From the NCBI GenBank assembly GCA_965216935.1, contig OZ244217.1:2512741-2576740 (forward strand): a stretch of DNA of 64,000 bases, written 5' to 3'. Shown in pieces: positions 1-19,690 of the stretch. Origin of the DNA: Acidobacteriota bacterium (lineage in GTDB: Bacteria > Acidobacteriota > UBA890). A program made the position numbers and the translations under genes. Every line of letters begins with the position of its first letter. The stretch's first letter is position 1. Below the pieces are notes generated by a model. It was not told the DNA's origin. It did not search any database and saw only the letters and a program-made list of their open reading frames with translations.

Positions 1-318
1 TTGAAGACGACGTCGTCGAGATCGTCCTCGGCTTCGCCCATCCGCTCGTTGGCTTCGTCGATCACGTCTTCAGGTCCGCCCATTCGGTCGTCGCCGTCGT
101 CGATCCCGGCCTCGGATGGTTGATCACGACGCCCGCGTGCCCGTGTGCCGCTCGAGTCGCGGACCTGCCGGCGATTCGGCGCACTCTGGAGGTAGAGGAA
201 CCAATTCAGTATCCTTTCGCCCGTCTGACTTCTCAAGGATCCGCGGTCGGGGACTCCTCCGGTACGTCCGTACGGGTAGCACCGGGGTGCATCGCGGGTT
301 CCTGTGTGTGGGCGGGAC

Positions 319-1854
319 ATGAGAACACCGAAGCGGTTCTGCGAGTTCCGAATCCGACTCTCCCAGGGCTCGGCCTTCGCCATGTACAACGGCGAGCTGA
401 ATATCCCGGGTGTTCGACACGGACCGCCCACGGACCGGATCGAGTTGGTCAACGAGGGTCTGCGCAAGGATGCGATCGAGGTCCTCAGCAACCTCGTCCA
501 CCGCGAGGGGGCGGGCCGAGAAGAGATCACCCTGCTGGGAGACTTCCTCTACGACCTGCTGTTCCAGGGCGAGATCCGCGACCAGTTCCTCAAGACCTAC
601 GAGGCCGTAACCGCGGACGAGGACTGCGTGCTGCGGCTCGTCCTGGAGTTCAAGGGGGGCGAGGATTTCTCCGAGCTTCCGTGGGAGTACCTGCACCTGA
701 CCGACCTCAACGTGTTTGCCGCGGCCGTCTCGCCGATGGTCCTTTCGCGTCACGTCGAGCTCAAGAAGGAGCTGAAGGAGCCCGACGCCCCCGATCAGCT
801 GCGGCTCCTGGCGGTGGTTTCGAACCCCTCCAACGCCCGCGCTCCGGTCATTGCCGCTCCGATCGTCGACAAGATCCGGAAGATGTCCGAGGCGCATCGG
901 CTCGACGTCCGTTTGTTGGAGCAGCCCACCCGCAAGTCCTTCGAGGAGGCGTTCCGGGATCGCGACTGGCGTCCACAGATCCTGCACTTCTTCGGCCACG
1001 GTCAGTTCGATCCCGTTCGCGGCGGTTCGCTGGCGCTGTGCAAGCCGATGTCGGAGCGAGAGGACTGGCTGCCCGATGACGACCTGGTCGACATCCTCGG
1101 CGAGCGGCGGCGTCTCCGCCTGGTCGTGCTGCAGTCGTGCGAGGGAGCCGCGGGCAACGAGTTCAGCGGCGTGGCGAACAAGCTGGTGCGTGCGGCGGTG
1201 CCCGCGGTTGTTGCGATGCGCTACGAGATCGACAACGATTCGGCCACTTGCTTCGCCGAGACCTTCTATCGCCGTTTGGACGAGGGCTGGCCGATCGATT
1301 CGGCGGTGCAGGCCGGCCGCGAGGCGCTGGTGCGCCTGTCCGACGATGCGCGTCGGTTCAGCGACCGCCGCTTCGGTACCCCCGTTCTCTTCCTCCAGAG
1401 CCGCGACTACCAGACCGATCATCGCCTGATCCGGCCGAGCGAGGAAGGCGCGCAGGGCGCCGAAGCAAGCGGCGCTTCCGCCCGGGATCAGGCGCCGCGC
1501 GCCGTGCACGTCAGCTGTCCCTATTGCGGCAACCGCAGCTCGGTGATCCCCGGACGTAGTGTCTACTACTGCTCCAACGACAGTTGTCGGAGCAAGTACC
1601 GCTTCTGCCCGTCGTGCGGCGACGAAGTCATCCCGTCTGCCGAGGAGCACTGCGACGAGTGCCTGCGCCTGCGTGTCACCGCCGCGGCGGCGGGGCAGGC
1701 CGATCCCGATCGCGGAGAGCGCGGCGTGACGCCCGCGGCGGCTCGAGCTCCGCACGCGCCGGCGGACGACAGGGCGGCCCAGCCGGCCGGCGCGGCGGGC
1801 GACCGGCTCTACGTCGTCCGCGGGCAGGACCGGAGGGATCCGGCCGATGGCTGA
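319..1854 (+). CDS. CHAT-domain (caspase-like) cysteine protease with C-terminal double zinc ribbon
   Basis: Track ORF 304..1854; start set at ATG 319 (ATG 382 also possible). His/Cys dyad in CHAT-type context (ILHFFGHGQF ... LVVLQSCEGA). C-terminal cysteine pairs CPYC / CSNDSC / CPSC / CDEC. No signal peptide or TM segment. G/C-rich third codon positions. Confidence 0.85.
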   Translation: MRTPKRFCEFRIRLSQGSAFAMYNGELNIPGVRHGPPTDRIELVNEGLRKDAIEVLSNLVHREGAGREEITLLGDFLYDLLFQGEIRDQFLKTYEAVTADEDCVLRLVLEFKGGEDFSELPWEYLHLTDLNVFAAAVSPMVLSRHVELKKELKEPDAPDQLRLLAVVSNPSNARAPVIAAPIVDKIRKMSEAHRLDVRLLEQPTRKSFEEAFRDRDWRPQILHFFGHGQFDPVRGGSLALCKPMSEREDWLPDDDLVDILGERRRLRLVVLQSCEGAAGNEFSGVANKLVRAAVPAVVAMRYEIDNDSATCFAETFYRRLDEGWPIDSAVQAGREALVRLSDDARRFSDRRFGTPVLFLQSRDYQTDHRLIRPSEEGAQGAEASGASARDQAPRAVHVSCPYCGNRSSVIPGRSVYYCSNDSCRSKYRFCPSCGDEVIPSAEEHCDECLRLRVTAAAAGQADPDRGERGVTPAAARAPHAPADDRAAQPAGAAGDRLYVVRGQDRRDPADG

Positions 1855-4630: not shown

Positions 4631-6255
4631 GCGCCAAGGTGAAGCTGCCCGTCGCCCTGCACATGGGCGAGACCTTGCCGGTCGATCCGGACGGCGTTCG
4701 GGCAGCGATCGAGGGCTACGCCGAAACCTTGCTGGACAGCCTGGAGATCCCGGCCGAAGTGACGGTCGAGCTGGTCTCGGGTCCCCTCGAAGATCTTCCT
4801 TCCGGCGACGCGTCCTTCATCACCGGCCGCGAGGCGTCGGGCCTGACGCGGCACGACGAGGACGGCCGGCTCACCGCCGAGAGCGCCGCCCAGCTCGGCG
4901 CGATGGCCGTGTGCGACGGGCGCTGTCAGCTGGTGACGGCCGCGGTCGTCGACGCCGTGTGGAAGGGCTGGACCGGTGGGGAGTCCGGCGACGCCCCGGC
5001 CGGGCTGGCGGAGGCGTTGCGAGACGCCGTCCGCTACGGCGTCTCGCTCGAGAAGGTTCGCGCCGCCTGGGAGGGGTCGGCCGATCCCGACAACGTCGAC
5101 ACGTTCCGCGTCGCCGTCGACCGAGCCCTGGATGCCCGCGGCAAACCGTTGGCGCGCCTGGCCATGGGCCGCGAACTGTACGCCCGCTGCTTCGATCCGG
5201 CCACCGACGAGCCGCTGCAGCCGGAGGGCGAAGACGATCCGCTGGACGTCATACAGTCGAACATGGTCGACGGGCTCTTCTACTCGCTCGGCATGATCGT
5301 CGAGGTGGAGATCGAGCCCGATGGTGGGCTCGAGCCCTTCGGGTTCTCCACGTCCTTCTACGACCTGCCCGGTCCGCCGATGTCGAACCTCGCCGAGGGG
5401 GAATTCCTGGTCAACGAGATTCCCTCGCGGCTGAACATGCTCCACATCGAGGCGCGGGCGGTGGTCAACCCCGCCAACGGGTCGGAGAACGCCGTTGTTT
5501 CCAGTGCGCGCGACGCGGAGGCATGCCGCGAAGTCGGCGGGTACACCACATGGGGCCAGGCTTCGTACGCGGTCCTCTGCGCGTCCGCGCACGTCCGCCG
5601 CAACGCCGCGGCGTTCATCGACGGTCGATTCGCCCGCCTGTATCTGGCACGGCTGGGGAGTGCCTTTCCGACCCTCGTGCGCGCGATCGACGAGCGGTTC
5701 GACCGTGGATTGATCACCGGGGTGCTGCGTGGCCTCATTGAGGAAGAGATCTCGATCCGCGATGCGCGCGGCATCATGGAGGGGCTGCTGGCGGTGCAAG
5801 GTGTCAGCTCGGTCGATCACGGCCGTTACATCGTGTTCGATCCGTTCACCGAGCGTCGCTGCCCGGTGCCCGCGGGCAGGACACTGGAGGACCTGAGGGC
5901 GCCCGAGTACGCCGAAGCGGCCCGCGGCGCCCTGCGCGATTTCATCTCCCACAAGCACACGCAGGGGGCGAGCTCGCTGCTCTGTTTTCTGGTCGACCCG
6001 GCGATCGAGGCCGAGCTGCAGCAGCCCGAGCCGCTCACACCTTCCCGTCGCCGGGAGATCATCCGAGCCGTATACGAGGAGGCCGGAGGGCGGCCGGGCT
6101 GGTCCAGCCAGCCGGTCATCCTGACGACCGTGTCGGCGCGCAAGCGCATGCGCCGCCTGGTCGAGGCCGAGTTTCCCGAGCTACCCGTGCTGTCGTACCA
6201 GGAGCTTCGACCGGACATGAACATCCAGCCGATCGCCCGCATCAGCGTCGATTGA
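4627..6255 (+). CDS. Stand-alone FlhA/SctV cytoplasmic-domain-like protein (second FlhAc paralogue)
   Basis: ATG 4627 overlaps the upstream stop (ATGA). The upstream part of track ORF 4048..6255 is an Arg-rich out-of-context extension. FlhAc-like blocks: LPVALHMGETLPVD, ITGVLRGLIEEEISIRDARGIMEGLLAV, ARKRMRRLVEAEFPELPVLSYQELRPDMNIQPIARISV. No TM segment. Confidence 0.8.
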   Translation: MSAKVKLPVALHMGETLPVDPDGVRAAIEGYAETLLDSLEIPAEVTVELVSGPLEDLPSGDASFITGREASGLTRHDEDGRLTAESAAQLGAMAVCDGRCQLVTAAVVDAVWKGWTGGESGDAPAGLAEALRDAVRYGVSLEKVRAAWEGSADPDNVDTFRVAVDRALDARGKPLARLAMGRELYARCFDPATDEPLQPEGEDDPLDVIQSNMVDGLFYSLGMIVEVEIEPDGGLEPFGFSTSFYDLPGPPMSNLAEGEFLVNEIPSRLNMLHIEARAVVNPANGSENAVVSSARDAEACREVGGYTTWGQASYAVLCASAHVRRNAAAFIDGRFARLYLARLGSAFPTLVRAIDERFDRGLITGVLRGLIEEEISIRDARGIMEGLLAVQGVSSVDHGRYIVFDPFTERRCPVPAGRTLEDLRAPEYAEAARGALRDFISHKHTQGASSLLCFLVDPAIEAELQQPEPLTPSRRREIIRAVYEEAGGRPGWSSQPVILTTVSARKRMRRLVEAEFPELPVLSYQELRPDMNIQPIARISVD

Positions 6256-6319
6256 TCGGCGATGGCGTCGCACGGCCGCTCCGGCGGGCGGCGACGTCCA
6301 CCAACCCGAGCACGAACCG

Positions 6320-7714
6320 ATGACGATCGAACCCGTTCCCGGCACTCCCTTCGACTACTACCTGGTCTCCTACGACAAGCACGGGCGTGAGTACAACGAT
6401 CCCGAGGGCATGAACGGCCTCATGTCCCTGCGCATCGAGCGGGACATCGCCGATCACGGCATCACCGACGTGTTCTTGCTGTCGCACGGCTGGAAGGGCG
6501 ACGTTCCTGCGGCCAAGTCGCAATACGAGGCGTGGATCAAGGCGATGGCCGATTGCGGCGAGGACGTCGAGAAGGTCCGCGCACAGCGACCGGGCTTCAA
6601 ACCGTTGATTATCGGATTTCACTGGCCCAGCTTGCCGTGGGGCGACGAGTCCTACGGCGGGATTTCGTTCGCGGCGGGCGGTGCAGACGCCGGCCCGCCG
6701 GTGAGCGAGCCCGAGGATCCCGTCAGGGCGCAGATCGATGCGGCGGCCGAGAGCATTGCCGATTCTGCCGCGGCGCGCCAGGCATTGGAAACGATCTTCG
6801 CCGCCGCGCTCGACGACATCGCCCCGGACAACCTGCCGCCTGCGGTCGTTTCGGCCTACGAGACGCTGGCCGCCGAGGCCGGGCTCGAAACGGGCGGGGA
6901 TCTGGGGGCGGCCCCGGGTGACGACGTGGCGGCGTTCGATCCCGAGGCGTCGTATCAAACGATGCTCGAGCTCGAGGAGGACATCTACTACGGCGACTCG
7001 TCGATCGGCGGAGGCATCCTCGGCGGACTGCGCCAGCTGTCCTTCTGGAAGATGAAGAAGCGGGCCCGATCGATCGGCGAGTCGAGCGCCGCGACGTTGA
7101 TCCGACGCCTGCAAGAGATCGGCACCGACGGCCCGGGTGGTGACAACGTGCGGTTCCACCTGATGGGTCACAGCTTCGGCTGTATCGTCGTGTCCGCGGC
7201 GATCGCCGGCCGCGACGGCGACGAGCCTTTGGTGCGACCGATCGACTCCGTGCTGCTGGCGCAGGGGGCGCTGTCGCTGTGGGCGTACTGCAGCGATATT
7301 CCGGTCGCGCCGGGCAAGCCGGGGTACTTCTCCTCGATCGTCGCCGGCGGGAAGGTCGCCGGCCCGCTGGTGACGACGCAATCCATGCACGACACCGCCG
7401 TCGGTGTGCTGTACCCGCTCGCGGCCGGCGCCGCCTTCCTCGCCGCCGACGCCGTCGCCTTCGACTTCGACCCCACCCGGCCGCCCAAGTACGGGGCCCT
7501 CGGCACGTATGGCATCCAGGGGCCGGGCGTCGACCTCGATCGCCGGACCATGGGCCCGGTCGATACCGATTACGAGTTCGTTGGCGGACGGGCATACAAC
7601 GTCGAGGGCAGCGGCGTGATCAACGAGGGCGGCGGCGCCTCCGGGGCGCACAACGACATCGCCAAGCCCGAGGTAGGGCACGCATTCTGGAGCGCGATTC
7701 TGGCCGCTCCCTGA
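6320..7714 (+). CDS. Alpha/beta-fold serine hydrolase (lipase/esterase-like), cytoplasmic
   Basis: Track ORF 6320..7714. GxSxG nucleophile elbow (HLMGHSFGCIVV), an early HG motif (FLLSHGWKGD), and candidate Asp (SMHDTA) and His (GAHNDI). No signal peptide. Lies 64 nt downstream of the FlhAc-like gene on the same strand. Confidence 0.8.
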   Translation: MTIEPVPGTPFDYYLVSYDKHGREYNDPEGMNGLMSLRIERDIADHGITDVFLLSHGWKGDVPAAKSQYEAWIKAMADCGEDVEKVRAQRPGFKPLIIGFHWPSLPWGDESYGGISFAAGGADAGPPVSEPEDPVRAQIDAAAESIADSAAARQALETIFAAALDDIAPDNLPPAVVSAYETLAAEAGLETGGDLGAAPGDDVAAFDPEASYQTMLELEEDIYYGDSSIGGGILGGLRQLSFWKMKKRARSIGESSAATLIRRLQEIGTDGPGGDNVRFHLMGHSFGCIVVSAAIAGRDGDEPLVRPIDSVLLAQGALSLWAYCSDIPVAPGKPGYFSSIVAGGKVAGPLVTTQSMHDTAVGVLYPLAAGAAFLAADAVAFDFDPTRPPKYGALGTYGIQGPGVDLDRRTMGPVDTDYEFVGGRAYNVEGSGVINEGGGASGAHNDIAKPEVGHAFWSAILAAP

Positions 7715-7987
7715 GCCCGGCGTGAGTCGCTCCCTTGACGGTTGTCCCGGCGGCGTGGTCCGATCGGGTCTCCGGCGTTCGTGATTGCGGCGCCCCCGCA
7801 CGGGTAGCTTCCGATTCGGGCGTCGTTGTCGATCGCGAGGCCGGATTACATGGGGACCGCTTCGGTGTGAGCGCGCTTTCGGGTGCGATCCGGCCGGCGG
7901 TCCCTTTTCGATGGGCGAGGTTGCACGGCACCAGCGTCGCCGGAACCCCGGGAGGATCCCGGGTGGGGACCGGAAAGGACTCGTCGT

Positions 7988-9178
7988 ATGGCCCGCAAGC
8001 GCAAAGGCAAGAAACGCAGGACGGCGAAGCGCACGGCATCGTCCGGCCCCGCCGCCCCGATGACCGACGCGCAGCTCAAGCGGAAGGTCAAGGCCCGCCC
8101 GGCCCGCAAGAAACCGAAGAAGTTGGTGATCCGACACGACATCATGGTGGCCGGAACCGACACCCGGCTTCGACACAAGTCCACCGGGAGGTCGAAGTCG
8201 CTCATCGCCCGGCCGCTCGCGAAGGTGCGCTCGGGGCGGGGCATCGATGTGCAGATCGAGATCGCCGGGGCGGAGCTCGGGACGCGCGTTTTCCGTCCGC
8301 CGATCGAAGGCAAGCGGGTCAGGGTGCCGAAGATCACCGCGGCGCGGCGCGCCGAGGCCCGGCAGGGGCTGCCCGCGCTGGACGGGTTTCTACCCGACCA
8401 CCTTCCGCTGCAACCCGTGCCGCCGAAGCTCGAGGCCGCCCTGCGAGTCCCGAGCTTCATCAAGACCGTCGGTCGTATCGGCAAGACGCAACGTCGGGCG
8501 ACGACGGTGTTCGATCCCGAAGATCGTTACACGTTCTCCGACACGGCCTTTCCGTGGTGCACGGTGGGCCGCGTGGACACCGCCGGCGGCTGGGCCAGCG
8601 GTGTGCTCATCGGCCCCCGGCACATGCTCACCGTCAGCCACGCCATTGTCTGGGGGGCGGGGAACAGTGCCGGGTGGGTGCGTTTCCGGCCGTCGTATTT
8701 CGACGGCAACGCGCCGTTCGGCGAGGCGTGGGGGACGCGCTGGTACGCCTTCAAGAAGGTCGTTGGTCCCGGCATCGATCTGGACGAAGGGCGGCAGGAC
8801 TACGTCGTCATCGTGCTCGATCGTCGTATCGGCGACACCTGCGGCTGGATGGGATCGCGGACCTATTCGGAGTCCTGGGACGGCGGCAACTTCTGGCGCC
8901 ACATCGGCTACCCGGGGGACATGGCCGGCGGACTGCGTCCGTCCTACGAGCGCGACATCTCGCTCGATGGGCGCAACACCTCGAGTCACCGGGAGCTCTG
9001 GCACCAGGGTGACGTCTGGCCGGGGCAATCGGGCGGACCGTTCTTCGCCTGGTGGGCCGGCGAGGACTGGCCGCGTGTCGTCAGCGTGCAGTCCTGGGAA
9101 AACAGCCAACGCAACGGAGCCTCCGGCGGCAGCCGCATGGTCGACTTGATCATCACCGCGCGCAACGATCATCCCTGA
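7988..9178 (+). CDS. Trypsin-like (S1, V8/glutamyl-endopeptidase-like) serine protease with very basic ~170-aa N-terminal extension
   Basis: In frame with track ORF 7883..9178. ATG 7988 is preceded by GAAAGGA. His (LTVSHAIV), Asp (DYVVIVLD) and Ser (GQSGGPFF) triad motifs. N-terminus MARKRKGKKRRTAKR... No signal peptide. Confidence 0.8.
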   Translation: MARKRKGKKRRTAKRTASSGPAAPMTDAQLKRKVKARPARKKPKKLVIRHDIMVAGTDTRLRHKSTGRSKSLIARPLAKVRSGRGIDVQIEIAGAELGTRVFRPPIEGKRVRVPKITAARRAEARQGLPALDGFLPDHLPLQPVPPKLEAALRVPSFIKTVGRIGKTQRRATTVFDPEDRYTFSDTAFPWCTVGRVDTAGGWASGVLIGPRHMLTVSHAIVWGAGNSAGWVRFRPSYFDGNAPFGEAWGTRWYAFKKVVGPGIDLDEGRQDYVVIVLDRRIGDTCGWMGSRTYSESWDGGNFWRHIGYPGDMAGGLRPSYERDISLDGRNTSSHRELWHQGDVWPGQSGGPFFAWWAGEDWPRVVSVQSWENSQRNGASGGSRMVDLIITARNDHP

Positions 9179-9316: not shown

Positions 9317-11290
9317 TCAGAGCGTCACTTTTCGCGCCGCCACGTAGCCGCCGGCGTCGTAGCCGGCCAGCTCGAGCAGGCTCGCACCCGTGGCATCGAG
9401 GGCGAGGCTAGTGGTGCCGTCGCTGACGTCGAGCGTGCCCACCGGGCGTCCGTCCAGGTACACGTCCACGCGATCGAGGCCGAGGGTGGTCACCTGTGCC
9501 GAAAGCGAGGCCCCGGACCCGCTGGTGGACACGTCGAGGCGTCGCCGCGGCAGCCCATCAAGGATCTCCGCCGCCCGCTCGATCAGGTCCTCGTTGCTGT
9601 TGAGCAGGTCGTTGCGGGTCATGAAGTAGCGCTCGTCCGGCTTGATGCCGAGATCCTCCACCGGTGTCCCTGAGCGTTCGCCGACGCGCAACGTCCGGCG
9701 CACCGAGACCCGCATGCCGGCCCCCTGCGGCAGGTTCCGGTAGGGCGAGGCGGGGTCCGCGGGCGCGGGGTGTTGCAGTAACGCCTGCAGCAGCCCGTGC
9801 GTCCACACGTTGGCCCCGCCCGCACCGGTGTTGTCGTCGACGCCCAGGATCGGGCCGATCTCGTGGTCCTTGAATCCGGCGGCGAAGATGTCCGTGGCGC
9901 TGTAGCAGCGTGCATCGGTCACCAGCACCACCGGCCCGTGGTACTGCTGGCCGCGCCCGTTGGCGAAGTCGTCCGGGGTGATCGGGAAGGCGCGCGAGTA
10001 GACCGCGCCGGTCTCGACCGAGTCGGCGATCGAGTCGGCCCACGGGCCCAGGTCGATGCCTACCGGATTGCTTTCGTGCCGGCGGGCGATGCGCAGGTTC
10101 AGCGGCGTGTTGATGAACTGCACCGGTTCCGCCTCGACGACCGCGGGGGTGAGCGTTTGCAGCAATCCCTCCGACGCCCAGATGTGGCCGCCGCCGTTGG
10201 CCCGAACGTCGACGATGAGGCCGTCCTGCGGCAGTAGGCCGATCAAGCGGACGAACTCGTCGACGAAAGCGCCGGGATTATCGACGCTGAACGTGAAGAT
10301 GCGAACGTAGCCGAAGACTCCCGACGCGGTGTCGACCGACTCCGCCTTGAACACCCCGGACATGGTTGTCGGGATCGACGCTCCGGCCGCGGCGCGCCGA
10401 TTCAGCGCTGCCTTCGAGATTCTCTTGGACGCCTTCGCCACTACCTTGGGCGCGAACAGCATCTTCTTCGTCCGGCGAACGAAGTCGAGCTCGAGATCCA
10501 GCCCGAGACACGCAGCGTTCCGCGACCCCGAGTCGGGATTGACGGCGTCCAGGTCGGGGAGGGGAGGAGAAACGAGCCAGTCGAGCTTGATCTCGCGATC
10601 GGTGCCGCCGCTGTCGACGTAGCCGACGATCACCCAGTTCGCGTCGGGCGGCAGCGCCAGGCGCAGTGGTCGGATCGTCAGGCCGTCGACGCCGCGGGCC
10701 TGGCGGGCGGCCATATTGCTGCCGGCATGGCGGGCGGCGCTCACCTCGATTGCGCGGCGGATCGGCACGCCGTTCCACAGCTTGATTTCGACGCCCGGGT
10801 TGAAGTGCGCCGGCGTGAACCCCTGCACGAAGTGGCTGGCGACGTAGTGGGGCTCGCCGTCGTCGTCGAAGTATTCCTCCACATCGAACGGCAGGAACGC
10901 CACCTTGTCGGCGAAGGGAGCCGGCAGCAGGTAGTTGGTGTGCAGGTCGCGCACCGAATTGAAGATGTCCAGCATCTCCCGATGGAAGGCGAACTCGCTT
11001 CCCATCGTCGCCGTCGTCGACTCTTCCAGGCGATGCTGCACGAGGCGCAGCCGCTGCACCGGGTCGACGCCGTGCATTGCCTCCTTCAGCGGCAGGTGCA
11101 CGTAGTTCTCCTCGATGAGCACGAGTGCCTGTTCCACCAGGCGTTTGCGCTGCGAAAGAGACAGCACGCCGGCTTGCCCGAGGAACGTCGGCAGGTCGGT
11201 AGCCGCGCTGAGGTGGGAGCGGACGGCCGGGTGGGTCCGCTTGAGGAACGACGGCTTGGCGGAACGCTTCTTCGCCGCCTTCTTGGCCAT
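9317..11290 (-). CDS. S41-family (C-terminal processing / tail-specific-like) serine peptidase, no signal peptide
   Basis: Track ORF 9317..11290. S41 hallmarks IVDVRANGGGHIW and LVTDARCYSATDIFAAGFKD. Lys-rich N-terminus MAKKAAKKRSAKPSF. Convergent with the trypsin-like gene. Confidence 0.85.
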   Translation of the reverse strand: MAKKAAKKRSAKPSFLKRTHPAVRSHLSAATDLPTFLGQAGVLSLSQRKRLVEQALVLIEENYVHLPLKEAMHGVDPVQRLRLVQHRLEESTTATMGSEFAFHREMLDIFNSVRDLHTNYLLPAPFADKVAFLPFDVEEYFDDDGEPHYVASHFVQGFTPAHFNPGVEIKLWNGVPIRRAIEVSAARHAGSNMAARQARGVDGLTIRPLRLALPPDANWVIVGYVDSGGTDREIKLDWLVSPPLPDLDAVNPDSGSRNAACLGLDLELDFVRRTKKMLFAPKVVAKASKRISKAALNRRAAAGASIPTTMSGVFKAESVDTASGVFGYVRIFTFSVDNPGAFVDEFVRLIGLLPQDGLIVDVRANGGGHIWASEGLLQTLTPAVVEAEPVQFINTPLNLRIARRHESNPVGIDLGPWADSIADSVETGAVYSRAFPITPDDFANGRGQQYHGPVVLVTDARCYSATDIFAAGFKDHEIGPILGVDDNTGAGGANVWTHGLLQALLQHPAPADPASPYRNLPQGAGMRVSVRRTLRVGERSGTPVEDLGIKPDERYFMTRNDLLNSNEDLIERAAEILDGLPRRRLDVSTSGSGASLSAQVTTLGLDRVDVYLDGRPVGTLDVSDGTTSLALDATGASLLELAGYDAGGYVAARKVTL

Positions 11291-11380
11291 TGCGCGATGC
11301 TCCTAGGTCCCCAAGAGTTCGCGATGAGAGCCGGCTGCCCAGGGTCTCGCGGGAGATCCGAAGCACCCTGCTGCATCTTG

Positions 11381-11467
11381 GATATACCGTGGCGCGGCGA
11401 GTGTCCAGGGGAGCGGGCTGCCGCCGGCCCCGGATCCCTGGACACCCTCTCGCCGTTTGCCCATAAT
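11381..11467. promoter_or_regulatory. Divergent sigma70-like promoters sharing a 10-bp perfect inverted repeat (S41 <-> S8 intergenic)
   Basis: Inverted repeat GTGTCCAGGG (11401-11410) / CCCTGGACAC (11436-11445). Plus strand: TGGACA (11439-11444) - 17 nt - CATAAT (11462-11467), about 90 nt upstream of the S8 ATG. Minus strand: TGGACA (11407-11402) - 15 nt - TATATC (11386-11381), facing the S41 gene. Confidence 0.4.
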
Positions 11468-11554
11468 GGCGCCACCCGGGCCGGCGGCCCGGCCCGGTTG
11501 GGGACCCGGAACGACGCGCCCGCTTGCCGCGCACACGACAGGTCCGCGAACCGC

Positions 11555-13639
11555 ATGGCTGATCGTCGCGATTTCTTCGAGAATCTCGTCTACCAGACGG
11601 TGGATCGGCGGCGGTTCACGCAGCAATCGCCCGTGATGCCGGACGTCTGGATCCACTACGGCATGAATCCGGGCGAGCAGCAGCATCTGCTGATGGTCCC
11701 GGACTGGCACTACACGCCCGCGGCCCTGACCGGCGGGATCAAAGAGCGGCTGTCCGGGGACCGCGATAACGCCCGTCTGAGGCGCTTCCGGCTGGTCCCG
11801 CGCAACCCGGAGCCGGCCGCGGTGGCGCACAACCAGAGCGCGGTGGTGGCCACGCTGTGGTTCGACCAGCTCATCCGCGCCGTGCTTCCTTTGAGCGGCT
11901 GGTGGCGGGACGCCATCGCCGGCACACGTTCGCGTCGCGACAGGGATCGGCTGCACCTCGCCCTCGAAAACAAGGGCGCGCTGGTCACGTCGCTGGTGAC
12001 GGCATGGGGCGGCGACGACGCGAGGAAGGGGGCGGGTCCGGCTCGCCGCGGCGGAGCCCGTAGCGCCGGAGGCGAGCATGATGATGCCGGCGGCAGGCTT
12101 GCCGGAGGTCTCCCGCTCAGCGCCGACGTCCTCTGGCTCACCCGCGTGGCCGGCTTGCTCGCCTTCATCGCGACGAAAGCGCAGCGCGACCGCTTCGGCA
12201 AGCTGCGCAGCGAGAACAGCAAGGTCGAGCTTCTGCAGGGCTTGCTGGAAAAGAAGAACCACCGCAAGCTCGCCGGCGCGCTCGTCGACATCCTGACCGA
12301 GTCGGCGCCGGCGTACCCCGGCGACAACTATCCGCTGTATTCCGTCAACCGGAACCGTGAGACCTCTACCAGCCTGCGGGACTCGGTTGCGGCGGTGAAG
12401 GCCGACGCATCCAACCGGGTGTTCCAGGTCCGCGGCGAGGGCATCCGCTGGGCGGTGATCGACTCGGGCGTCGACGCGCGGCACGTCGCCTTCCGCCGCC
12501 GCAACGCCGACGGCGTGCCGCGGCGGCAGCCCTTCAGCCGGCCGCGACGACGGCGTCGGGCCGCGGCGGGCAGCACGCCGGGCGCCGAGGGCTTCTTCGT
12601 CAACGACACCCGGGTCGTGGCGACCTACGACTTCGTGCACATTCGCGAGTTGCTCGGCACCGAGCCGGAAGAGGTCGATGCGCTCCCGGAGGAGCGATTC
12701 CCGGCGCTCGCCCTCCCCGGAATGCGGCAGAAGCTTCGCGAGCTGATCGAGGACTACCACACCGGCGTCATCGACTGGCAGCGGCTGCAGCCGTTCCTCG
12801 AGATCCGCCACACGCCGAAGGCGTACCGGCCGCCGGTCGATCGCCACGGCACCCACGTCGCCGGGATCATCGGGGCGGACTGGCGTACGAGCGACGAAGA
12901 GGTCGACCTGCCGGGGCCGCGCCGGGAAATGACCGGCATGTGCCCCGAGATCGAGCTGTACGACCTGCGGGTGCTGGGTGATGACGGCACCGGAAACGAG
13001 TTCGCCATCATGTCGGCGATGCAGTTCGTTCGGGCGCTGAACACCGAGAAGGACTTCATGGCGGTTCACGGGGTCAACTTGAGCCTGTCGATCCCGCACG
13101 ACGTGGCGAACTACGCCTGCGGACGAACCCCGGTGTGCGAGGAGGCCGAGCGCCTGGTCGGCAACGGTATTCTGACGGTCGCCGCCGCCGGCAACAGCGG
13201 ACGGGCGCGCTACCTGACGCCCTCCAACGAGATCGACGACGGATTTCGCACCGTCAGCATCACCGATCCGGGCAACGCCGAGTCGGTGGTCACCGTCGGG
13301 GCAACCCACCGGCGGGATCCCCATACGTACGGGGTGAGCTATTTCTCCAGCCGCGGACCCACCGGGGACGGCCGCCTGAAACCCGACCTGGTCGCACCCG
13401 GGGAGAAGATTCGCTCGACCGTTCCCGACGATCGCGACGATCGCCTGGACGGCACCAGCATGGCCGCGCCCCATGTGAGCGGCGCGGCGGCGCTGATCAT
13501 GACGCGCCATCGGGAGGTGATCGGGCAACCCGGCAAGATCAAGGAGATCCTCTGCCGATCGGCGACCGACCTGGGCCGCGAGCCCTACTTCCAGGGGGCC
13601 GGAATGCTCGACATCTTGCGGGCGCTACAGGAGATCTGA
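11555..13639 (+). CDS. S8 subtilisin-family serine peptidase with ~330-aa non-catalytic N-terminal region, no signal peptide
   Basis: In frame with track ORF 10727..13639, whose upstream part is antisense to the S41 gene; start at ATG 11555. Asp (WAVIDSGVDARH), His (HGTHVAGIIGA) and Ser (GTSMAAPHVSGAAALI) triad. Confidence 0.85.
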   Translation: MADRRDFFENLVYQTVDRRRFTQQSPVMPDVWIHYGMNPGEQQHLLMVPDWHYTPAALTGGIKERLSGDRDNARLRRFRLVPRNPEPAAVAHNQSAVVATLWFDQLIRAVLPLSGWWRDAIAGTRSRRDRDRLHLALENKGALVTSLVTAWGGDDARKGAGPARRGGARSAGGEHDDAGGRLAGGLPLSADVLWLTRVAGLLAFIATKAQRDRFGKLRSENSKVELLQGLLEKKNHRKLAGALVDILTESAPAYPGDNYPLYSVNRNRETSTSLRDSVAAVKADASNRVFQVRGEGIRWAVIDSGVDARHVAFRRRNADGVPRRQPFSRPRRRRRAAAGSTPGAEGFFVNDTRVVATYDFVHIRELLGTEPEEVDALPEERFPALALPGMRQKLRELIEDYHTGVIDWQRLQPFLEIRHTPKAYRPPVDRHGTHVAGIIGADWRTSDEEVDLPGPRREMTGMCPEIELYDLRVLGDDGTGNEFAIMSAMQFVRALNTEKDFMAVHGVNLSLSIPHDVANYACGRTPVCEEAERLVGNGILTVAAAGNSGRARYLTPSNEIDDGFRTVSITDPGNAESVVTVGATHRRDPHTYGVSYFSSRGPTGDGRLKPDLVAPGEKIRSTVPDDRDDRLDGTSMAAPHVSGAAALIMTRHREVIGQPGKIKEILCRSATDLGREPYFQGAGMLDILRALQEI

Positions 13640-13642
13640 AAC

Positions 13643-14851
13643 ATGGCGACGGTGTTTACGCTGGAAGCCGTATTCGCGCGCAAGGGCGACGCGCTGCTGC
13701 TCCACTACGGGCCGTGGGAAGGCCCCGACTGGATCCTCGTCGATGGCGGGCCGCCGGGAGTCTACAAGAAGTTCCTGCAGCCACGGCTCGAGCAGCTCCG
13801 CGACGAGTTCGAGATTCAGGCCGACGACCCGATTCCCTTCGAGATGGTCATGGTCAGCCACATCGACGACGATCACATCGCCGGCGTGATCGACCTGTTC
13901 GAGGACATCGACGACGCCAAGACGAGCAATCAGCCGGCGCCGTATCGGGTCGAGAAGCTGTGGAACAACACCTTCGACGATCTTCTCGACAACGACGAGG
14001 AGGAGATCGTCTCGCGTATGGCCGCGACGGCGGCGTCGTCCAGCGCCGCCAACGGGTTGCCGCTGCCGAACATGACGCGTGAATCCCGCGCGGTGGTGGC
14101 GACCACCAGGCAGGGGCGAGACCTGCGAAACCTGGCCAAGAAGCTGCAGGCGAAGGTCAACGATCCCTTCGAGGGTCTGATCATGGCCCCGGCTTCGGCG
14201 GCAATCGCCTTCGATCACGGCCTGACCTTCACGGTGATCGGTCCGCTCGAGCATCGGGTACGTGCCCTTCAGGTGCAGTGGGACAAGGACGTGAAGAAGA
14301 TCCTCGAGGACGAGGCGAACGCCGGTCAGTCCGCCGCCTTCGGCGACACGTCGCCGTTCAACCTGGCGAGCATCTGCGTCCTCGCCGAGATGCAGGGCAA
14401 GTCGATGCTGCTGACCGGCGATGCGCGCGGCGACTTCATCATCGAGGGGCTGGAGGAGGTCGGGCTGCTGCAGGATGGCGACACGTTCCACGTCGACGTG
14501 TTGAAGATGCCTCACCACGGCAGCGACGAGAACGTCGAGGTGTCGTTTTTCGAGCGCGTCACGGCCGATCACTACCTCATTTCGGGCAATGGCGACCACG
14601 GGAATCCCGAGAAGACCACGCTCGAGATGATCGAAGAAGCCCGCGGGACGGACGAGTACACCGTTCACTTCACCTTCACCGAAAGCGCACACCTGACGGA
14701 CACCAGCCAGAAGCGACGAAAGGCGCTGAAGAAGATCACCGACTGGGTGGCGCAGAAGCCGGACAACTGCTCGGTCGTGTTCCAGGACGACGACGACGAG
14801 GTCCAGTCGGTGTACGTGGATCTGCTGGACCCGCTTTTCGAGGAGGAGTAG
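13643..14851 (+). CDS. Metallo-beta-lactamase-fold hydrolase, ComEC/Rec2-type MBL domain
   Basis: Track ORF 13643..14851, beginning 3 nt after the S8 stop. Motifs ILVDGGP, VVSHIDDDHIAG (HxDxDH variant) and VLKMPHHGSDEN, as in ComEC-like MBL domains. No signal peptide. Confidence 0.85.
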   Translation: MATVFTLEAVFARKGDALLLHYGPWEGPDWILVDGGPPGVYKKFLQPRLEQLRDEFEIQADDPIPFEMVMVSHIDDDHIAGVIDLFEDIDDAKTSNQPAPYRVEKLWNNTFDDLLDNDEEEIVSRMAATAASSSAANGLPLPNMTRESRAVVATTRQGRDLRNLAKKLQAKVNDPFEGLIMAPASAAIAFDHGLTFTVIGPLEHRVRALQVQWDKDVKKILEDEANAGQSAAFGDTSPFNLASICVLAEMQGKSMLLTGDARGDFIIEGLEEVGLLQDGDTFHVDVLKMPHHGSDENVEVSFFERVTADHYLISGNGDHGNPEKTTLEMIEEARGTDEYTVHFTFTESAHLTDTSQKRRKALKKITDWVAQKPDNCSVVFQDDDDEVQSVYVDLLDPLFEEE

Positions 14852-14985
14852 ACAGGGGGCCACGGGGATGTGGCGCGAGCGGAGTGACACACGGAGGACC
14901 GGGCGTGGTCCGATCAGACTGACACCGGAGGAGGCGGGGATTCGGGGGCGTGGCCCGCGAGGAGTCACACAAGGAGGAGAGTTTC

Positions 14986-16143
14986 ATGAGCGAGAATGGC
15001 CCTGATGTCGATCCCCGGGTTGCCTCCCCGGTCGACCCGGACAGTGCCGAGAAAGCCCCCAAGCTGCAGGACGGAATCGCCCTGTGCCTGTCGGGGGGTG
15101 GCTATCGGGCGATGCTGTTTCACCTCGGCACGTTGTGGCGGTTGAACGACGTCGGCTATCTGCCGCGCCTCGATCGAGTGTCGAGCGTCTCGGGAGGATC
15201 GATCACCGCCGGGGCCCTGGCGATGAGCTGGGGAAAGCTGAAGTTCGCCGGCACCGGTCGGGCGTCGAATTTCGTCGGCGAGGTTGTTCGCCCGATTCGC
15301 TCGCTCGCGAACCGGACGATCGACGTTGGTTCGGTGATCAGCGGGGCGCTTCTTCCCGGGTCGATCAACGACAAGGTCGAGGGGAAGTACCGTCGGCACC
15401 TGTTCGGCGACACCACCTTGCAAGACCTGCCGGACACGCCGCGGTTCGTGTTCAACGCGACGAACGTGCAGTCGGCGGTGCTGTGGCGATTCTCCAAGCC
15501 CTACATGGGTGACTATCGGGTCGGGCGGGTCGTGAGCCCGACCCTGGGGCTGGCGCAGGTGGTGGCGGCGTCCTCGGCCTTCCCGCCGGTGTTGTCGCCC
15601 GCCGAGCTCGATCTCGATCCGGGCTCGTTCACCTCCGGAACCGACTTGAAGGACCCGGCGTTCCGCCACGAGGTCGTTCTCAGCGACGGCGGCGTGTACG
15701 ACAACCTCGGCCTCGAGACCGCCTTCAAGCGTTACCAGACGTTGCTGGTGAGCGACGCCGGGGGCCGGATCGCTCCCGACGACGATCCACCGCGGGACTG
15801 GGCCCGGCATATGGTGCGCATCCTCGCCATCGTCGACCACCAGGTGCGCAACCTGCGAAAGCGGCAGCTCGTCGGCGCGTTTCGTGCCGATGTGCGCTCC
15901 GGTGCCTATTGGGGCATCCGAACGCCGATCCGCAAGTACTCGGCGAAGCACAAGCTGCACGTCCGCGACGACCGATCCTCCGAGCTCGCGCTGGTGCCGA
16001 CGCGCTTGAAGCGCCTTGAGGCCGGCCTGCAGGAGCGACTGATCAACTGGGGGTATGCGATCACAGACGCGGCGATGCGCACCTGGGTCGATACCGACCT
16101 GAAGCCGCCGAAGAGCTTCCCGTACCCGAAGGTGGGCGTGTGA
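14986..16143 (+). CDS. Patatin-like phospholipase
   Basis: In frame with track ORF 14950..16143. ATG 14986 is preceded by AAGGAGGAG. Motifs: LSGGGYRAM (oxyanion), VSGGSI (GxSxG Ser), SDGGVYDNLG (DGG Asp). Confidence 0.9.
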   Translation: MSENGPDVDPRVASPVDPDSAEKAPKLQDGIALCLSGGGYRAMLFHLGTLWRLNDVGYLPRLDRVSSVSGGSITAGALAMSWGKLKFAGTGRASNFVGEVVRPIRSLANRTIDVGSVISGALLPGSINDKVEGKYRRHLFGDTTLQDLPDTPRFVFNATNVQSAVLWRFSKPYMGDYRVGRVVSPTLGLAQVVAASSAFPPVLSPAELDLDPGSFTSGTDLKDPAFRHEVVLSDGGVYDNLGLETAFKRYQTLLVSDAGGRIAPDDDPPRDWARHMVRILAIVDHQVRNLRKRQLVGAFRADVRSGAYWGIRTPIRKYSAKHKLHVRDDRSSELALVPTRLKRLEAGLQERLINWGYAITDAAMRTWVDTDLKPPKSFPYPKVGV

Positions 16144-16153
16144 GCGATCCTTC

Positions 16154-19100
16154 ATGCCGCTGACCTTCAAGAAGAACAAGAGCCTGCTGACCGGCCCGGG
16201 ACAGCGGCGCGGGCTACCGCCCGTCGACCTGGAGCTCGAGGCGACGGCCGACAACGATCCGGCGACCGCCGACGCCTTGTTGCGCAACGATCCCTTCCCG
16301 AAGCTTCCGCTCAGGCTCGGCCGGGCGTCGGTCAAGGTCGATGCCGACGAGGAGGTCTCGTTCGGAAACGGCAAGGCGAAGACGAGCTTCTCCGCCGGCG
16401 TCGGCGTGTTCGCCGAGCTGGGCGTGTTCATGACCTCGAAGGCGGCGTTCAAGGCGGCGGCGATCAACGGAGCGATGTTGCCGGCGTTGTCCGTCGAGCG
16501 GGCCGAGACGGCGGAAGGCGCCGACGGGGGTGGGGCGGGCGGAGAGGCGGGCGGAGAAGCGGGCGGAGAAGCGGGCGGAGAGGCGGGCGGAGAAGCGGGC
16601 GGAGAGGCGGGCGGAGAGGCGGGCGGAGAGGCGGGCGGGGGGCCCCGGAAACTTGTCTACGCCGTGATGCAATCGGGGTACTCGCTCGCGGCCGAGGTCG
16701 ACGCGTCGATCGCTCTGGCTCCGGGATTCGTCCCCAGTCTGGAGACCTCGGCCGGCCGCTCGCGCGATTTCGCCGTGATCCGGGCTGTCGACGCGGAGGC
16801 CGGCTCCCGGGACGTCGTCCAGGATTTGCTGGACTCTTGGCGGCTGCCGCGCCAGGTGAACGAGGCATCCGACCTCGAGCCCGGCACGTGGATCGTCGCC
16901 GAGGTCGACGGCTCGTTCGCGCTCGGCCTCGAGGCGCGATACGGCTACACGTACAACTGGGTGAAAGCGGCGCGCCTGGGTGGCCTCTCCGGCGATATCG
17001 GCCTGAAGATCGAGCTCGGGGCCGCCGCGTCTCTGGGGTTCTCGGCCAGCGGCAAGTACGCCCTGGTGATCGGTCGTGCGTCCATGCAGCAAGACGACGA
17101 GCGACTCCGCGTGCGCCTGCATCGCCTGCAGCAGAGTGGGTGGAACTTCGCCTTCGACGCCTCGGCCGGCTTCACCGGTGACACGAGCGGCTTCTTGCCG
17201 GAGGAGTACGACAAGCTCGTGGCTGCGGTCTTCGGGCTCGACCCCGGCCAGCTCGTCGACGACCTCCGTCGCTGGACCGATCCGGCCAACGCCCTCCCCG
17301 ACCTGATTGCCGGGGAGAGCATCGACCTGGCGCACGAGGTGCTCACCGATCTCACCGGAATCGACGCGAAGGCGGAGTTCGCTCGGGCGCAGAAGAAGCT
17401 GCGTGAGCTGCTGGATCGCTGGGACGGTCTTCCGGGCGAGGTCGCCTCGCGCATCTGGGAGACGTTGCCGCACGCCGACGAGATCGAGCGCGTCGCCGAG
17501 GTCGCCCGGCAGATTGCCGAGGCGGATTCCAACGCGGCGAAGGCCCGGGTGATGGAGCTGATCGAGAAGCTCCTGGAGGAGATCGACTTCTTCGACACGC
17601 CGGTCGGCAAGTGGGTGCTTGCCGTGGCGATGAACCGGCCGCTGGAGCTGCTCGCCGCAGGGGTCGACTCCGAGCGCTTCAAGGAGTTCCAGGCGATCGC
17701 CGCCAGGACGGCTGCGATTCTCGACGGTTCCGAGGTCGCGGCAATGCTCGGCAAGTTCCACGCGCTGGTGTCCGAGAGGCTGCGGATCGACCTGCTTCGC
17801 GACCTCAACAAACGCGAGTTCGATGAGCTCGACGACTGGATGAAGGCGAAGCTGAGCCAGTTCATCGGCCGCAAGATCGACTTCTCCGAAATCGACAAGG
17901 TGCGCCGTGCGATCAAGGTCATGGACGACAACGCCGCCGCCTTCTACGAGAAGACGATCGCCGCACTGAACCGCAAGTACGAGCTCGCCTTCGCCTACAG
18001 GTTCCAGAGCGCGACGACGAAGACCGCCCTGATCGACGTGACCCTGGATTTCGCGGAGGGCAATCTGGGCGCTGCGCTGCGGCGGATGATCGCGGGAGAT
18101 TTCGACACGCTGCTTACCCGGCCGCAGAAGGGGATCACGCTCCACGTCGGCGCGCTGACCCACGGGATCGAGCGCCGGACGTCGGTCGATCTGACCATGC
18201 CGTGGATCAAGAAGAGCACCGTTTCGCGCTCCGAGGCGGTGGCCGAGCTCGACGTCGTGGACGAGGATGACGGTCGCCTGTTGATGTACGCCGGTGCGGC
18301 GAGCAACAAGGTTACCGAGGTAACGACCGTGGGCGCCGCCCAGTCGTACCGGGTCAGCGCGTTCGCCGTCGCTGCTCGACTTCCGGTGATGGTCGGCGGT
18401 GCGGCGAGGCGATCTGCTGGGGCGTCGGGTGGGACATCGAGTGGAGCTTCGAGTGGGGCGCTGACCGGCGCGTCGGGTTCGGCGGTCGGTGGAGGGTCGG
18501 GTACGGGGCCCTCGCGTGGCCTGCGGGTACATGGCGGGAGCTCGTTGGAGGCCTCCTATACGTACGCGGTGGCCGCTCCCGAGATGGTCATCGAGGACTT
18601 CATCAGCCACTTCGGCCCCTACGTTCGGGCTTACTTTCCGCGTCAGTTCGACAACGACGAAGCCCCCCGCTTCGGGGTCTGGGCGACGGAGCTCGACCGC
18701 AGGATCGACGCCGACCCGGACACTGCGAACGGGCCGCGCCTGTTCGGCGACACGCTCGTGCGGCTGGCGGTGGCGCTGCCGCCGGATACCGGCTCCGTCT
18801 GGTTCGAGGGGCCGACCCGGAAGACGGCTCCCGCGTACCGGGCGATGTCGCTGCGGATTCAGCAGGCCATGCGCGATCTGCTGACCTTCTACTACTTCGC
18901 CGACCCGCGGAACTTCCGCAACCGACTCGCCGCCCACGCCCTGCTGATGTACGCGGCGACCCCTCCGGCGAACGGCCTGAGGCTCGAGGGCGACAAGATC
19001 AAGAAGACCACTCACGCGATTCACTGGGATTGGCCGAACAACAAGCTACGTCGCGCGGTCTTGAACAGCAGTGCTACCGCCGAGCGCCTCGCCGCCGCCT

Positions 19101-19690
19101 TGCAGGTGGTTCGCGACCGGTTGGAGGGATTCCCCGACGCCGCCGGGTTCGCCGATTTGTACGACAGCACCGATCGCGTCCGCCGCACGCTCGTCGACCG
19201 GAACGCCGTCACCCTGCTGAAGTCGCTGTACCGGATGGAATCGATCGCGACACGCCGGGCCGCCGAGGCCGCAGTGCACGGAGCGGAGTTTCGGCGTGAC
19301 AAGGATGCGCGACCGGCGGACGCCCTCGAGGCGCTGGCGAAGTTCGGCGTCGTCGTCACCAGGGCGTTCAACGACGACCTGGGCACCGGGAAGGCGTACG
19401 GCTCGGCCGCGCTGCGTCCCCTGGGGGCGCTGGTGTACGTCGAGGCGATGCGGGCCTTGCAGGAGCGAACCCGCGGCTCGGCCGCCCCGGGATCCGTCCC
19501 GCCCGGAACCGCCGGCCGCGCCGGTGCGTCCGCCCCGCGGGGACTCGCCGGCGGCCCGGCCGGCTTGCCGCTGGCGACGTTCCAGCTCGAGGTGTTGCGG
19601 CGGGGCGTCGCCATCCCGGAGACGTTTCCCGACCACGAGCCGTTGCAGAGGGACGCGCTCGCCGTCCGTGAGCGGATCGTCAACGTCTGA
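16154..19690 (+). CDS. Large (1178 aa) protein of unknown function; beta-rich N-terminal region, helical middle and Gly/Ser-rich linkers
   Basis: Track ORF 16154..19690, 10 nt after the patatin stop. Codon-3 G/C bias is consistent with coding. I recognise no catalytic motif. Contains an (GGEA)x8 repeat and a GASGGTSSGASSGALTGASGSAVGGGSGTG linker. Confidence 0.75.
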   Translation: MPLTFKKNKSLLTGPGQRRGLPPVDLELEATADNDPATADALLRNDPFPKLPLRLGRASVKVDADEEVSFGNGKAKTSFSAGVGVFAELGVFMTSKAAFKAAAINGAMLPALSVERAETAEGADGGGAGGEAGGEAGGEAGGEAGGEAGGEAGGEAGGEAGGGPRKLVYAVMQSGYSLAAEVDASIALAPGFVPSLETSAGRSRDFAVIRAVDAEAGSRDVVQDLLDSWRLPRQVNEASDLEPGTWIVAEVDGSFALGLEARYGYTYNWVKAARLGGLSGDIGLKIELGAAASLGFSASGKYALVIGRASMQQDDERLRVRLHRLQQSGWNFAFDASAGFTGDTSGFLPEEYDKLVAAVFGLDPGQLVDDLRRWTDPANALPDLIAGESIDLAHEVLTDLTGIDAKAEFARAQKKLRELLDRWDGLPGEVASRIWETLPHADEIERVAEVARQIAEADSNAAKARVMELIEKLLEEIDFFDTPVGKWVLAVAMNRPLELLAAGVDSERFKEFQAIAARTAAILDGSEVAAMLGKFHALVSERLRIDLLRDLNKREFDELDDWMKAKLSQFIGRKIDFSEIDKVRRAIKVMDDNAAAFYEKTIAALNRKYELAFAYRFQSATTKTALIDVTLDFAEGNLGAALRRMIAGDFDTLLTRPQKGITLHVGALTHGIERRTSVDLTMPWIKKSTVSRSEAVAELDVVDEDDGRLLMYAGAASNKVTEVTTVGAAQSYRVSAFAVAARLPVMVGGAARRSAGASGGTSSGASSGALTGASGSAVGGGSGTGPSRGLRVHGGSSLEASYTYAVAAPEMVIEDFISHFGPYVRAYFPRQFDNDEAPRFGVWATELDRRIDADPDTANGPRLFGDTLVRLAVALPPDTGSVWFEGPTRKTAPAYRAMSLRIQQAMRDLLTFYYFADPRNFRNRLAAHALLMYAATPPANGLRLEGDKIKKTTHAIHWDWPNNKLRRAVLNSSATAERLAAALQVVRDRLEGFPDAAGFADLYDSTDRVRRTLVDRNAVTLLKSLYRMESIATRRAAEAAVHGAEFRRDKDARPADALEALAKFGVVVTRAFNDDLGTGKAYGSAALRPLGALVYVEAMRALQERTRGSAAPGSVPPGTAGRAGASAPRGLAGGPAGLPLATFQLEVLRRGVAIPETFPDHEPLQRDALAVRERIVNV
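16538..16633 (+). repeat. In-frame 12-nt tandem repeat (GGCGGAGARGCG x8) encoding (GGEA)8
   Basis: Read directly from the sequence; only the A/G in the GAR codon varies between copies. Confidence 0.9.

Follow-up and report, generated by a model that had tools for sequence, protein, structure and literature searches.

A subtilase gene coupled to a gene for a ComEC-type metallo-β-lactamase-fold protein in an Acidobacteriota genome: a putative protease-licensed nuclease

Why does a bacterium encode a subtilisin-like protease and a nuclease-like hydrolase in two genes which almost touch each other? The question is raised by a stretch of 64,000 nucleotides (nt) from an Acidobacteriota bacterium (lineage UBA890; assembly GCA_965216935.1, contig OZ244217.1, positions 2,512,741 to 2,576,740). 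"The window" denotes this whole stretch. In it a gene for a protease of family S8 is followed by a gene for a metallo-β-lactamase (MBL)-fold protein. An earlier note, made from the sequence alone, had proposed a protease-controlled nuclease. The G+C content of the window is about 68%. Therefore, long spurious open reading frames are common and the genuine genes were set by homology. The features of the pair are:

11555-13639, + strand: gene for an S8 subtilase of 694 amino acids (aa), by Pfam, alignment of homologues and AlphaFold2 (AF2) model
12461-12463, 12845-12847 and 13457-13459, + strand: codons of the S8 triad, Asp303, His431 and Ser635
11555-12424, + strand: N-terminal region of S8 (residues 1-290), family-specific and without Pfam match; candidate regulatory or sensor part
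13643-14851, + strand: gene for a ComEC-type MBL-fold hydrolase of 402 aa, putative gated pro-nuclease, by profile, fold and alignment
13859-13876, 14420-14422 and 14513-14524, + strand: codons of the MBL motifs HxDxDH, Asp260 and HHGS
14033-14065, + strand: putative MBL gating loop 1, residues 131-141, predicted local distance difference test (pLDDT) below 50; candidate protease cut region
14312-14350, + strand: putative MBL gating loop 2, residues 224-236, pLDDT below 50; candidate protease cut region

We class the pair as a new member of the protease-gated MBL pro-nucleases, more precisely of their S8 clade. We consider it likely that it constitutes a subtilase-licensed deoxyribonuclease (DNase) which causes abortive infection or cell death, with the product of a neighbouring patatin gene as a probable second effector.

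The two genes are tightly coupled. The S8 gene ends with TGA at 13637-13639. After the three letters 'aac' the MBL gene starts with ATG at 13643, i.e., the gap is 3 nt as had been noticed earlier, and a GGAG is located 11 nt 5' of this ATG. The start Met of S8 is supported by 56 homologues, the consensus of which opens at the same Met (MxDxRxFxExLVY). A hydropathy scan found an N-terminal hydrophobic signal (signal peptide) in neither protein. The lone borderline hydrophobic helix is S8 188-206 (Kyte-Doolittle 1.64), which is confidently modelled as a helix of a bundle. In the MBL the top 19-residue hydropathy is 1.19, below the transmembrane range. The sequencing runs which contain the region are of DNA type only.

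The MBL carries the motifs SHIDDDH (72-78), GDA (259-261) and HHGS (291-294). Across 66 homologues D75, D77, H78, D260, H291 and H292 are invariant and H73 is nearly so. The worry that metal ligands might be missing on proper alignment is thus removed. Pfam covers only the first motif region (residues 29-99). The models of Avs1a and of the LmuA-type MBL match over the full length. The PADLOC model of the latter, PDLC03854, is hit at 2e-46, with residues 6-352 on profile positions 4-323 of 345, PADLOC Avs1a at 3e-33 and the PADLOC reverse-transcriptase-associated MBL (RTasMBL) at 9e-30. NCBIfam Avs1a gives 6.5e-45 and 153.5 bits, under the equivalog cut-off of 420, and NCBIfam ComEC/Rec2 (TIGR00361) gives 3.8e-5 and 22 bits versus a cut-off of 190. 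In the Protein Data Bank (PDB) the sequence matches are ComEC only (9vc6, E 6e-4, aligned across HHGS); single-sequence and profile searches with the MBL found no HamM, Avs or CanC structure there. The AF2 model has a pLDDT of 87.6 and a predicted template modelling score (pTM) of 0.89. Its best PDB fold match is the β-lactamase-like domain of ComEC, 9ic4 (E 1e-11, target template modelling (TM) score 0.72); the weaker ones include the MBL-fold cyclic-nucleotide phosphodiesterase Apyc1, 7u2s (E 9e-4). The label 'ComEC-type', given earlier on account of HxDxDH and HHGS, is backed by the motifs as well as by 9vc6 and 9ic4. The likeness is to the C-terminal domain of ComEC/Rec2, with which the protein shares HxDxDH-type and HHGS motifs and its closest solved fold. 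Unlike ComEC, it is a free soluble protein without competence channel or OB domain, and only the MBL part matches; it is not a member of the ComEC/Rec2 family. Its sequence relates the MBL distantly to the pro-nucleases Avs1a and HamM and to the MBL of Lamassu/ABC-three-component (ABC3C) systems.

HamM and Avs1a are 'gated' pro-nucleases in which two disordered inserts block the ComEC-like active site. HamM is cleaved after I118 and I218, EpiAvs1a after I134, in each case by a trypsin-like partner protease; cleavage frees an indiscriminate DNase, and a caspase version, CanABC, acts alike (Tuck et al., 2025; PMC12799240). According to Evans et al. (2025; 10.1101/2025.11.14.688446), double cleavage of VcMBL at I133 and I232 yields a Zn-dependent nuclease for double-stranded DNA. 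Ile-Ser is the published P1/P1' pair of the cut sites (PMC12799240; 10.1101/2025.11.14.688446).

Does the window MBL possess comparable inserts? It exceeds the ComEC domain, which has 266 aa, by about 135 aa. The AF2 model has exactly two segments with a pLDDT below 50, 131-141 and 224-236. They sit among the extra helices 122-133, 146-167 and 203-223 within residues ~100-230, outside both the Pfam match (29-99) and the ComEC alignment (231-332). For comparison we used an MBL from an Enterococcus faecium plasmid (L019), which is encoded beside a trypsin-type ABC-three-component protein and is a true PADLOC LmuA-MBL member (369 bits versus 156.6 for the window MBL). In pairwise and multiple alignments both Ile-Ser inserts of this clade-1 MBL fall on the window loops. 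Loop positions and the spacing of ~95 residues agree with the published cut sites I118/I218, I133/I232 and I134. In the S8-clade MBLs the loops carry Ala/Ser-rich stretches, a conserved L-P-L-P-x-M (139-144) and A-A-A-F (230-233). Sequences of the AAPF type are the classic subtilisin site. The conserved AAAF233 resembles it but was not adopted as a cut site; its 'AF.D' part recurs in the MBL of the trypsin clade and may be structural.

The protease is an S8 subtilase. Pfam Peptidase_S8 matches residues 295-683 (E 9e-40). The triad consists of Asp303 (DSGVD), His431 (HGTHVAG) and Ser635 (GTSMA), with Asn508 as oxyanion residue. Among 56 homologues D303, H431 and N508 do not vary, and at least 90% have S635. 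An insert of ~95 aa between Asp and His is conserved and confidently modelled over residues 351-430; at lenient thresholds nothing in Pfam matches it. For residues 1-290 Pfam has no matching family, not even at E = 0.1. Of the ~330 aa of unrecognised sequence initially reported ahead of the Asp, the lack of recognition stands and the length is corrected to 302 residues. The N-terminal region is modelled as an α/β domain (1-125), a long helix and then a helical bundle, confidently so at residues 30-160 and 190-270. Residues 1-290 match 476 representative clusters in a search of 1.84 billion representatives. S8 lies C-terminal to this region in every full-length word-search match and in 9 of 10 representatives scanned; the tenth is a protein of 460 aa without Pfam match. 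In related loci S8 is conserved over its whole length, N-terminal region included. In a fold search with the full model subtilisins dominate. Pro-subtilisins rank first with target TM-scores below those of mature subtilisins, and an I9-like prodomain is not claimed.

Two side observations on S8 genes from related loci are added. In L003/L004, two separate assemblies, codon 117 of the gene (6972-8960) is an in-frame stop; otherwise the gene aligns full length at 59.5% identity. It may be a pseudogene, or the site may be recoded or erroneous. L005 has a second, shorter S8-like gene downstream of the MBL gene (11222-13012; 596 aa, 31% identity to the catalytic part of the window S8).

Is the pairing an accident of this genome? 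We read the contexts of MBL homologues at 69% down to 29% identity and of patatin homologues, which yielded 17 independent loci, the window and 16 related ones. In all 17, S8 is encoded directly upstream of the MBL on the same strand, with gaps mostly of -4 to 44 nt. The pair is present in metagenome contigs (L001, L003, L005, L007, L008, L009, L010 and L016), Acidobacteria-type contigs among these. It is also found on plasmids of Miltoncostaea oceani, Methylorubrum extorquens CM4, Paroceanicella profunda, Sinorhizobium meliloti (two), Rhizobium leguminosarum (two) and R. phaseoli. Over 12 loci, sequence identity to the window protein runs in parallel for S8 and MBL (r = 0.98). The flanking genes vary from locus to locus in the 17 loci, thus the pair moves as a unit. 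Chance adjacency is excluded, and the survey of adjacency across genomes which the earlier note had called for comes out in its favour. Co-inheritance has likewise been reported for trypsin-MBL pairs (PMC12799240; 10.1101/2025.11.14.688446).

A natural fusion provides independent evidence of a functional link. The metagenome protein P0183 (1107 aa) consists of a complete MBL followed by a complete S8 with its N-terminal region, every motif intact. The domain order MBL-S8 is the reverse of the usual gene order; therefore the protein is not a simple read-through of the common arrangement.

How does the pair relate to described systems? The MBLs of HamMAB (Hachiman) and of Avs1, Avs2 and Avs4 are similar in size (HamM ~42 kDa), ComEC-like, and have two inserts ~100 residues apart; they are encoded beside a protease and are Zn-dependent DNases after cleavage. 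In those systems the protease is trypsin-like and encoded downstream, whereas in the window it is an S8 enzyme encoded upstream and, unlike the HamMAB/Avs proteases, has no fused helicase, STAND or structural-maintenance-of-chromosomes (SMC) sensor. An AVAST type 1 system (Avs1a/b) is not present: the operon has no STAND or trypsin gene, and the Avs1a score is 153.5 versus 420. Nor is it a Lamassu or ABC-three-component system with an MBL-and-protease LmuA, as the SMC-like ATPase LmuB, the middle component and the protease-LmuA fusion are absent from the window. In CanABC (Canu; Tuck et al., 2025) the protease gene is likewise upstream of the gene for the gated MBL nuclease; the operon is small, stands alone, includes an accessory gene and lacks a nucleoside triphosphatase (NTPase). 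There, the protease is a caspase-family cysteine protease, and the window has no equivalent of CanB. IetAS, named as a comparator in the earlier note, also has a cytoplasmic S8 protease in a two-gene defence-type operon. It proved unsuitable: IetS models score 26 bits (PADLOC) and 14.7 bits (NCBIfam, versus a cut-off of 900), an IetA ATPase gene is missing, and the partner here is an MBL.

The nearest precedent is a branch of a tree. According to Evans et al. (10.1101/2025.11.14.688446) protease-associated MBLs form three clades, trypsin-like, caspase-like and S8 subtilisin-like, the latter being Clade 3. As in the window, the MBL of Clade 3 is encoded next to an S8 subtilisin-like protease, and it is a homologue of the MBLs that accompany trypsin-like and caspase-like proteases. 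The authors mention 'Additional, distinct sensor associations' for the caspase and S8 clades. Thus, the statement that no S8-MBL system had been described needs correction, if only by a tree branch; in the accessible part of the paper this branch comes with neither an experiment nor a cut site nor a sensor. Of two features of the window pair, the patatin that recurs beside it and the N-terminal region of S8, that part makes no mention. As to the proposal of a protease-controlled nuclease, it is well supported by the adjacency in 17 of 17 loci, the invariant metal ligands and the mechanism in homologous MBLs; it loses in novelty, because the literature had already anticipated it.

The surroundings of the pair comprise the following features:

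11401-11445, no strand: imperfect inverted repeat, 17-nt arms 11401-11417 and 11429-11445, 82% complementary, core GTGTCCAGGG/CCCTGGACAC; overlaps the -35-like box
11439-11467, + strand: sigma-70-like promoter match (TGGACA, 17 nt, CATAAT), 88 nt upstream of the S8 start; consensus match only
14986-16143, + strand: patatin-like phospholipase gene, 385 aa, a frequent accessory of S8-MBL cassettes
16154-19690, + strand: gene for a 1178-aa protein without family match, 10 nt after the patatin gene

The patatin gene starts 134 nt after the MBL gene and has a strong ribosome-binding site, AAGGAGG. The spacer contains no terminator and no unusual fold (z = -0.04). It does contain two copies of the motif GAGTSACACAMGGAGGA (14881-14898 and 14961-14979), the second of which supplies the patatin ribosome-binding site. 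A patatin gene adjoins the pair in 8 of the 17 loci, the window counted, usually directly upstream of S8; this recurrence had escaped the earlier note. In L016 patatin, S8 and MBL genes are tightly spaced, with one gap of 4 nt and one overlap of 1 nt. In S. meliloti M270 a patatin-S8-MBL cassette is located on a conjugative plasmid and has transposase genes on both sides. There are two patatin subfamilies. L007 and L008 carry the closest relatives of the window S8 and MBL, yet their patatins are only 30-33% identical to the window patatin. Hence patatin is a swappable accessory and not co-inherited with the pair. Possibly, it is a second effector. The family of the window patatin is very large, at least 8000 members (all 8000 scored candidates had E 1e-10 or better). 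Of five patatin-homologue contexts, selected for the length of their contigs, four have an MBL-like gene next door, one of these being a full patatin-S8-MBL cassette; in the fifth only an S8 gene of a different type adjoins. Literature searches found no patatin-S8-MBL system.

Other genes may occupy the accessory position, coding for FRG-domain proteins (L022, L024), a DUF2235 protein (L011), a protein kinase (L010) or a TIR protein (L012). In L022 and L024, both Rhizobium plasmids, the FRG-domain gene takes patatin's place upstream of S8-MBL, and in L024 genes for DUF3616, SIR2 and NERD-kinase proteins come after the pair. Defence-type neighbours are SIR2 with nSTAND1 (L007), TIR (L001, L012) and SIR2 with NERD kinase (L024). 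Transposases or an integrase are near L009, L017 and L020.

The 1178-aa protein has no Pfam match at lenient thresholds, no match in the defence libraries or NCBIfam and none in the PDB. A homologue is absent from all other S8-MBL loci read. A related locus, L014, which carries a CHAT protease next to MBL and patatin genes, encodes a homologue of 1057 aa (3105-6278, - strand; 31% over 1012 aa, E 1e-108). Its gene overlaps the CHAT protease gene by 4 nt, i.e., is translationally coupled to it, and is divergent from a row of genes for MBL, patatin, a 156-aa protein, a 919-aa protein and another MBL. The 1178-aa protein is possibly linked to the S8-MBL module, though it is not a conserved part of the cassettes; its family may be another protease partner or substrate. 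The patatin is bound to the S8-MBL pair no less firmly than to this protein. Separately, L017 (8001-14124) has, beside a phage-type integrase, genes for a patatin 60% identical to that of the window, a 1181-aa protein and a 474-aa MBL-like protein. This row resembles a parallel arrangement of patatin, giant protein and MBL; the 1181-aa protein has no detectable relation to the 1178-aa protein.

Upstream, an S41 peptidase gene (9317-11290, - strand) is divergent and shares promoter region and inverted repeat with the S8 operon. Its product resembles CPAF (NCBIfam 1e-17, below cut-off). The inverted repeat may serve both divergent promoters, that of S41 and that of S8, as an operator. Further upstream, 304-6255 (+) encodes a CHAT protease, a TPR-FHIPEP (FlhA C-terminal-like) fusion and a second FHIPEP-like protein together. 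The segment 6320-9178 (+) encodes a 464-aa protein without Pfam match, then a trypsin-like protease (Trypsin_2, E 6e-4). The latter two may be a second protease-effector pair, of the α/β-hydrolase zymogen type of Evans et al. Together with the genes for S41, S8-MBL and patatin, the CHAT/FHIPEP genes form a block of ~19 kb which has the look of a defence or conflict island.

How might such a cassette work? The MBL would be made as an inactive zymogen, with the inserts at about 131-141 and 224-236 blocking a ComEC-like two-metal site. The cytoplasmic S8 would be kept inactive by its own N-terminal region of ~290 aa, which would probably also receive the trigger. Upon infection or another stress signal S8 would cut both inserts, and the freed nuclease would degrade DNA indiscriminately, by which the cell is stopped or killed. 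Patatin would attack the membrane as a second effector and may even be released by the S8 protease as well. In favour of the subtilase-licensed DNase are the coupled genes, the conserved and co-inherited adjacency, the intact catalytic residues of both enzymes, the homology to proven pro-nucleases and the two low-confidence loops at homologous positions. The defence-type context, i.e., SIR2 with nSTAND1, TIR, SIR2 with NERD kinase, mobile elements, conjugative plasmids and the protease-plus-effector block, supports it further.

Several observations weigh against it. Blocking of the active site by the two loops is presumed by analogy with homologues. The P1 isoleucines of the trypsin-type clade are conserved neither in the window MBL nor in other MBLs of the S8 clade, although the P1 preference is expected to differ because the protease class differs. 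The catalytic domain of S8 is partly of low confidence in the AF2 model. In 50,697 phage records no homologue was found, and the pair of L023 lies among metabolic genes. Finally, neither the window nor the other loci read encode an NTPase, helicase or SMC sensor along with the pair. Because none accompanies the pair, the N-terminal region of S8 would, by elimination, be the best candidate for regulation or sensing.

A bolder version of the same idea appears doubtful. In it patatin-S8-MBL would be a self-contained three-gene immune cassette with two effectors and without NTPase. The S8 N-terminal region would be the infection sensor, one subtilase would license a DNase and a membrane phospholipase by cleavage, and in the window and L014 it would perhaps act on the 1178-aa family too.

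Alternatively, S8 and MBL might act side by side on a shared external substrate, in peptide or nucleic acid turnover or in natural-product processing, the MBL not being a substrate of the protease. In that case a common pathway, rather than zymogen activation, would account for the conserved adjacency. S8 and MBL-fold enzymes are both found in maturation and catabolic pathways, L023 has its metabolic neighbours, and cleavage of the MBL is itself our proposal. Yet the conserved neighbours of the pair do not include a precursor peptide, transporter or modifying enzyme, and the flanks differ in each of the 17 loci. Full-length homology ties the MBL to proven pro-nucleases, its loops are at homologous positions, and the MBL-S8 fusion as well as the TIR, SIR2, STAND and patatin neighbours point to conflict systems. 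We hold a shared substrate to be improbable.

Even less probable is an exported inter-bacterial toxin set, in which a nuclease, a lipase effector and a processing protease leave the cell via a contractile injection or type VI-like system. The cassette of L005/L006 is downstream of an eCIS_core-domain protein and an M35 zincin, a patatin of the window family stands beside an RHS toxin in L018, and in L011 the MBL is followed by the DUF2235 protein, which we take to be Tle1-type lipase-like. But S8, MBL and patatin carry no signal peptide and no delivery domain (PAAR, MIX, Rhs), and secretion genes are not near most loci. A nuclease toxin without protection would call for an immunity protein, which a gated zymogen could do without, and an immunity gene is not conserved. 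That the logic is reversed, with S8 killing by broad proteolysis and the MBL as a regulator which, e.g., hydrolyses a nucleotide signal, is hardly credible: the fold match to Apyc1 (7u2s, E 9e-4) and the effector-less defence proteases reported by Evans et al. (10.1101/2025.11.14.688446) would suit it, but in sequence and fold the MBL best matches nucleases of the ComEC type and proven pro-nucleases, a cyclase is not among the conserved neighbours of the pair, and the two loops at homologous positions argue for the MBL as a substrate.

We return to the subtilase-licensed DNase. Protease-gated MBL nucleases were shown experimentally in 2025 and an S8-associated clade had been named. To this, the present analysis adds a conserved architecture without sensor, an N-terminal region specific to S8, a fusion of MBL and S8, the location of candidate gate loops and a patatin partner that recurs. 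The licensing of nucleases by proteases has only recently been recognised as a logic of bacterial immunity, parallel to the caspase-activated DNase of animals, and the experiments on gated MBLs so far cover the trypsin and caspase versions only. The window and the 16 related loci represent a compact S8 version with a presumably different cleavage specificity, no fused sensor and often a second, lipid-directed effector. It bears on whether gating extends to a third class of proteases and on how a protease without an NTPase sensor gets triggered.

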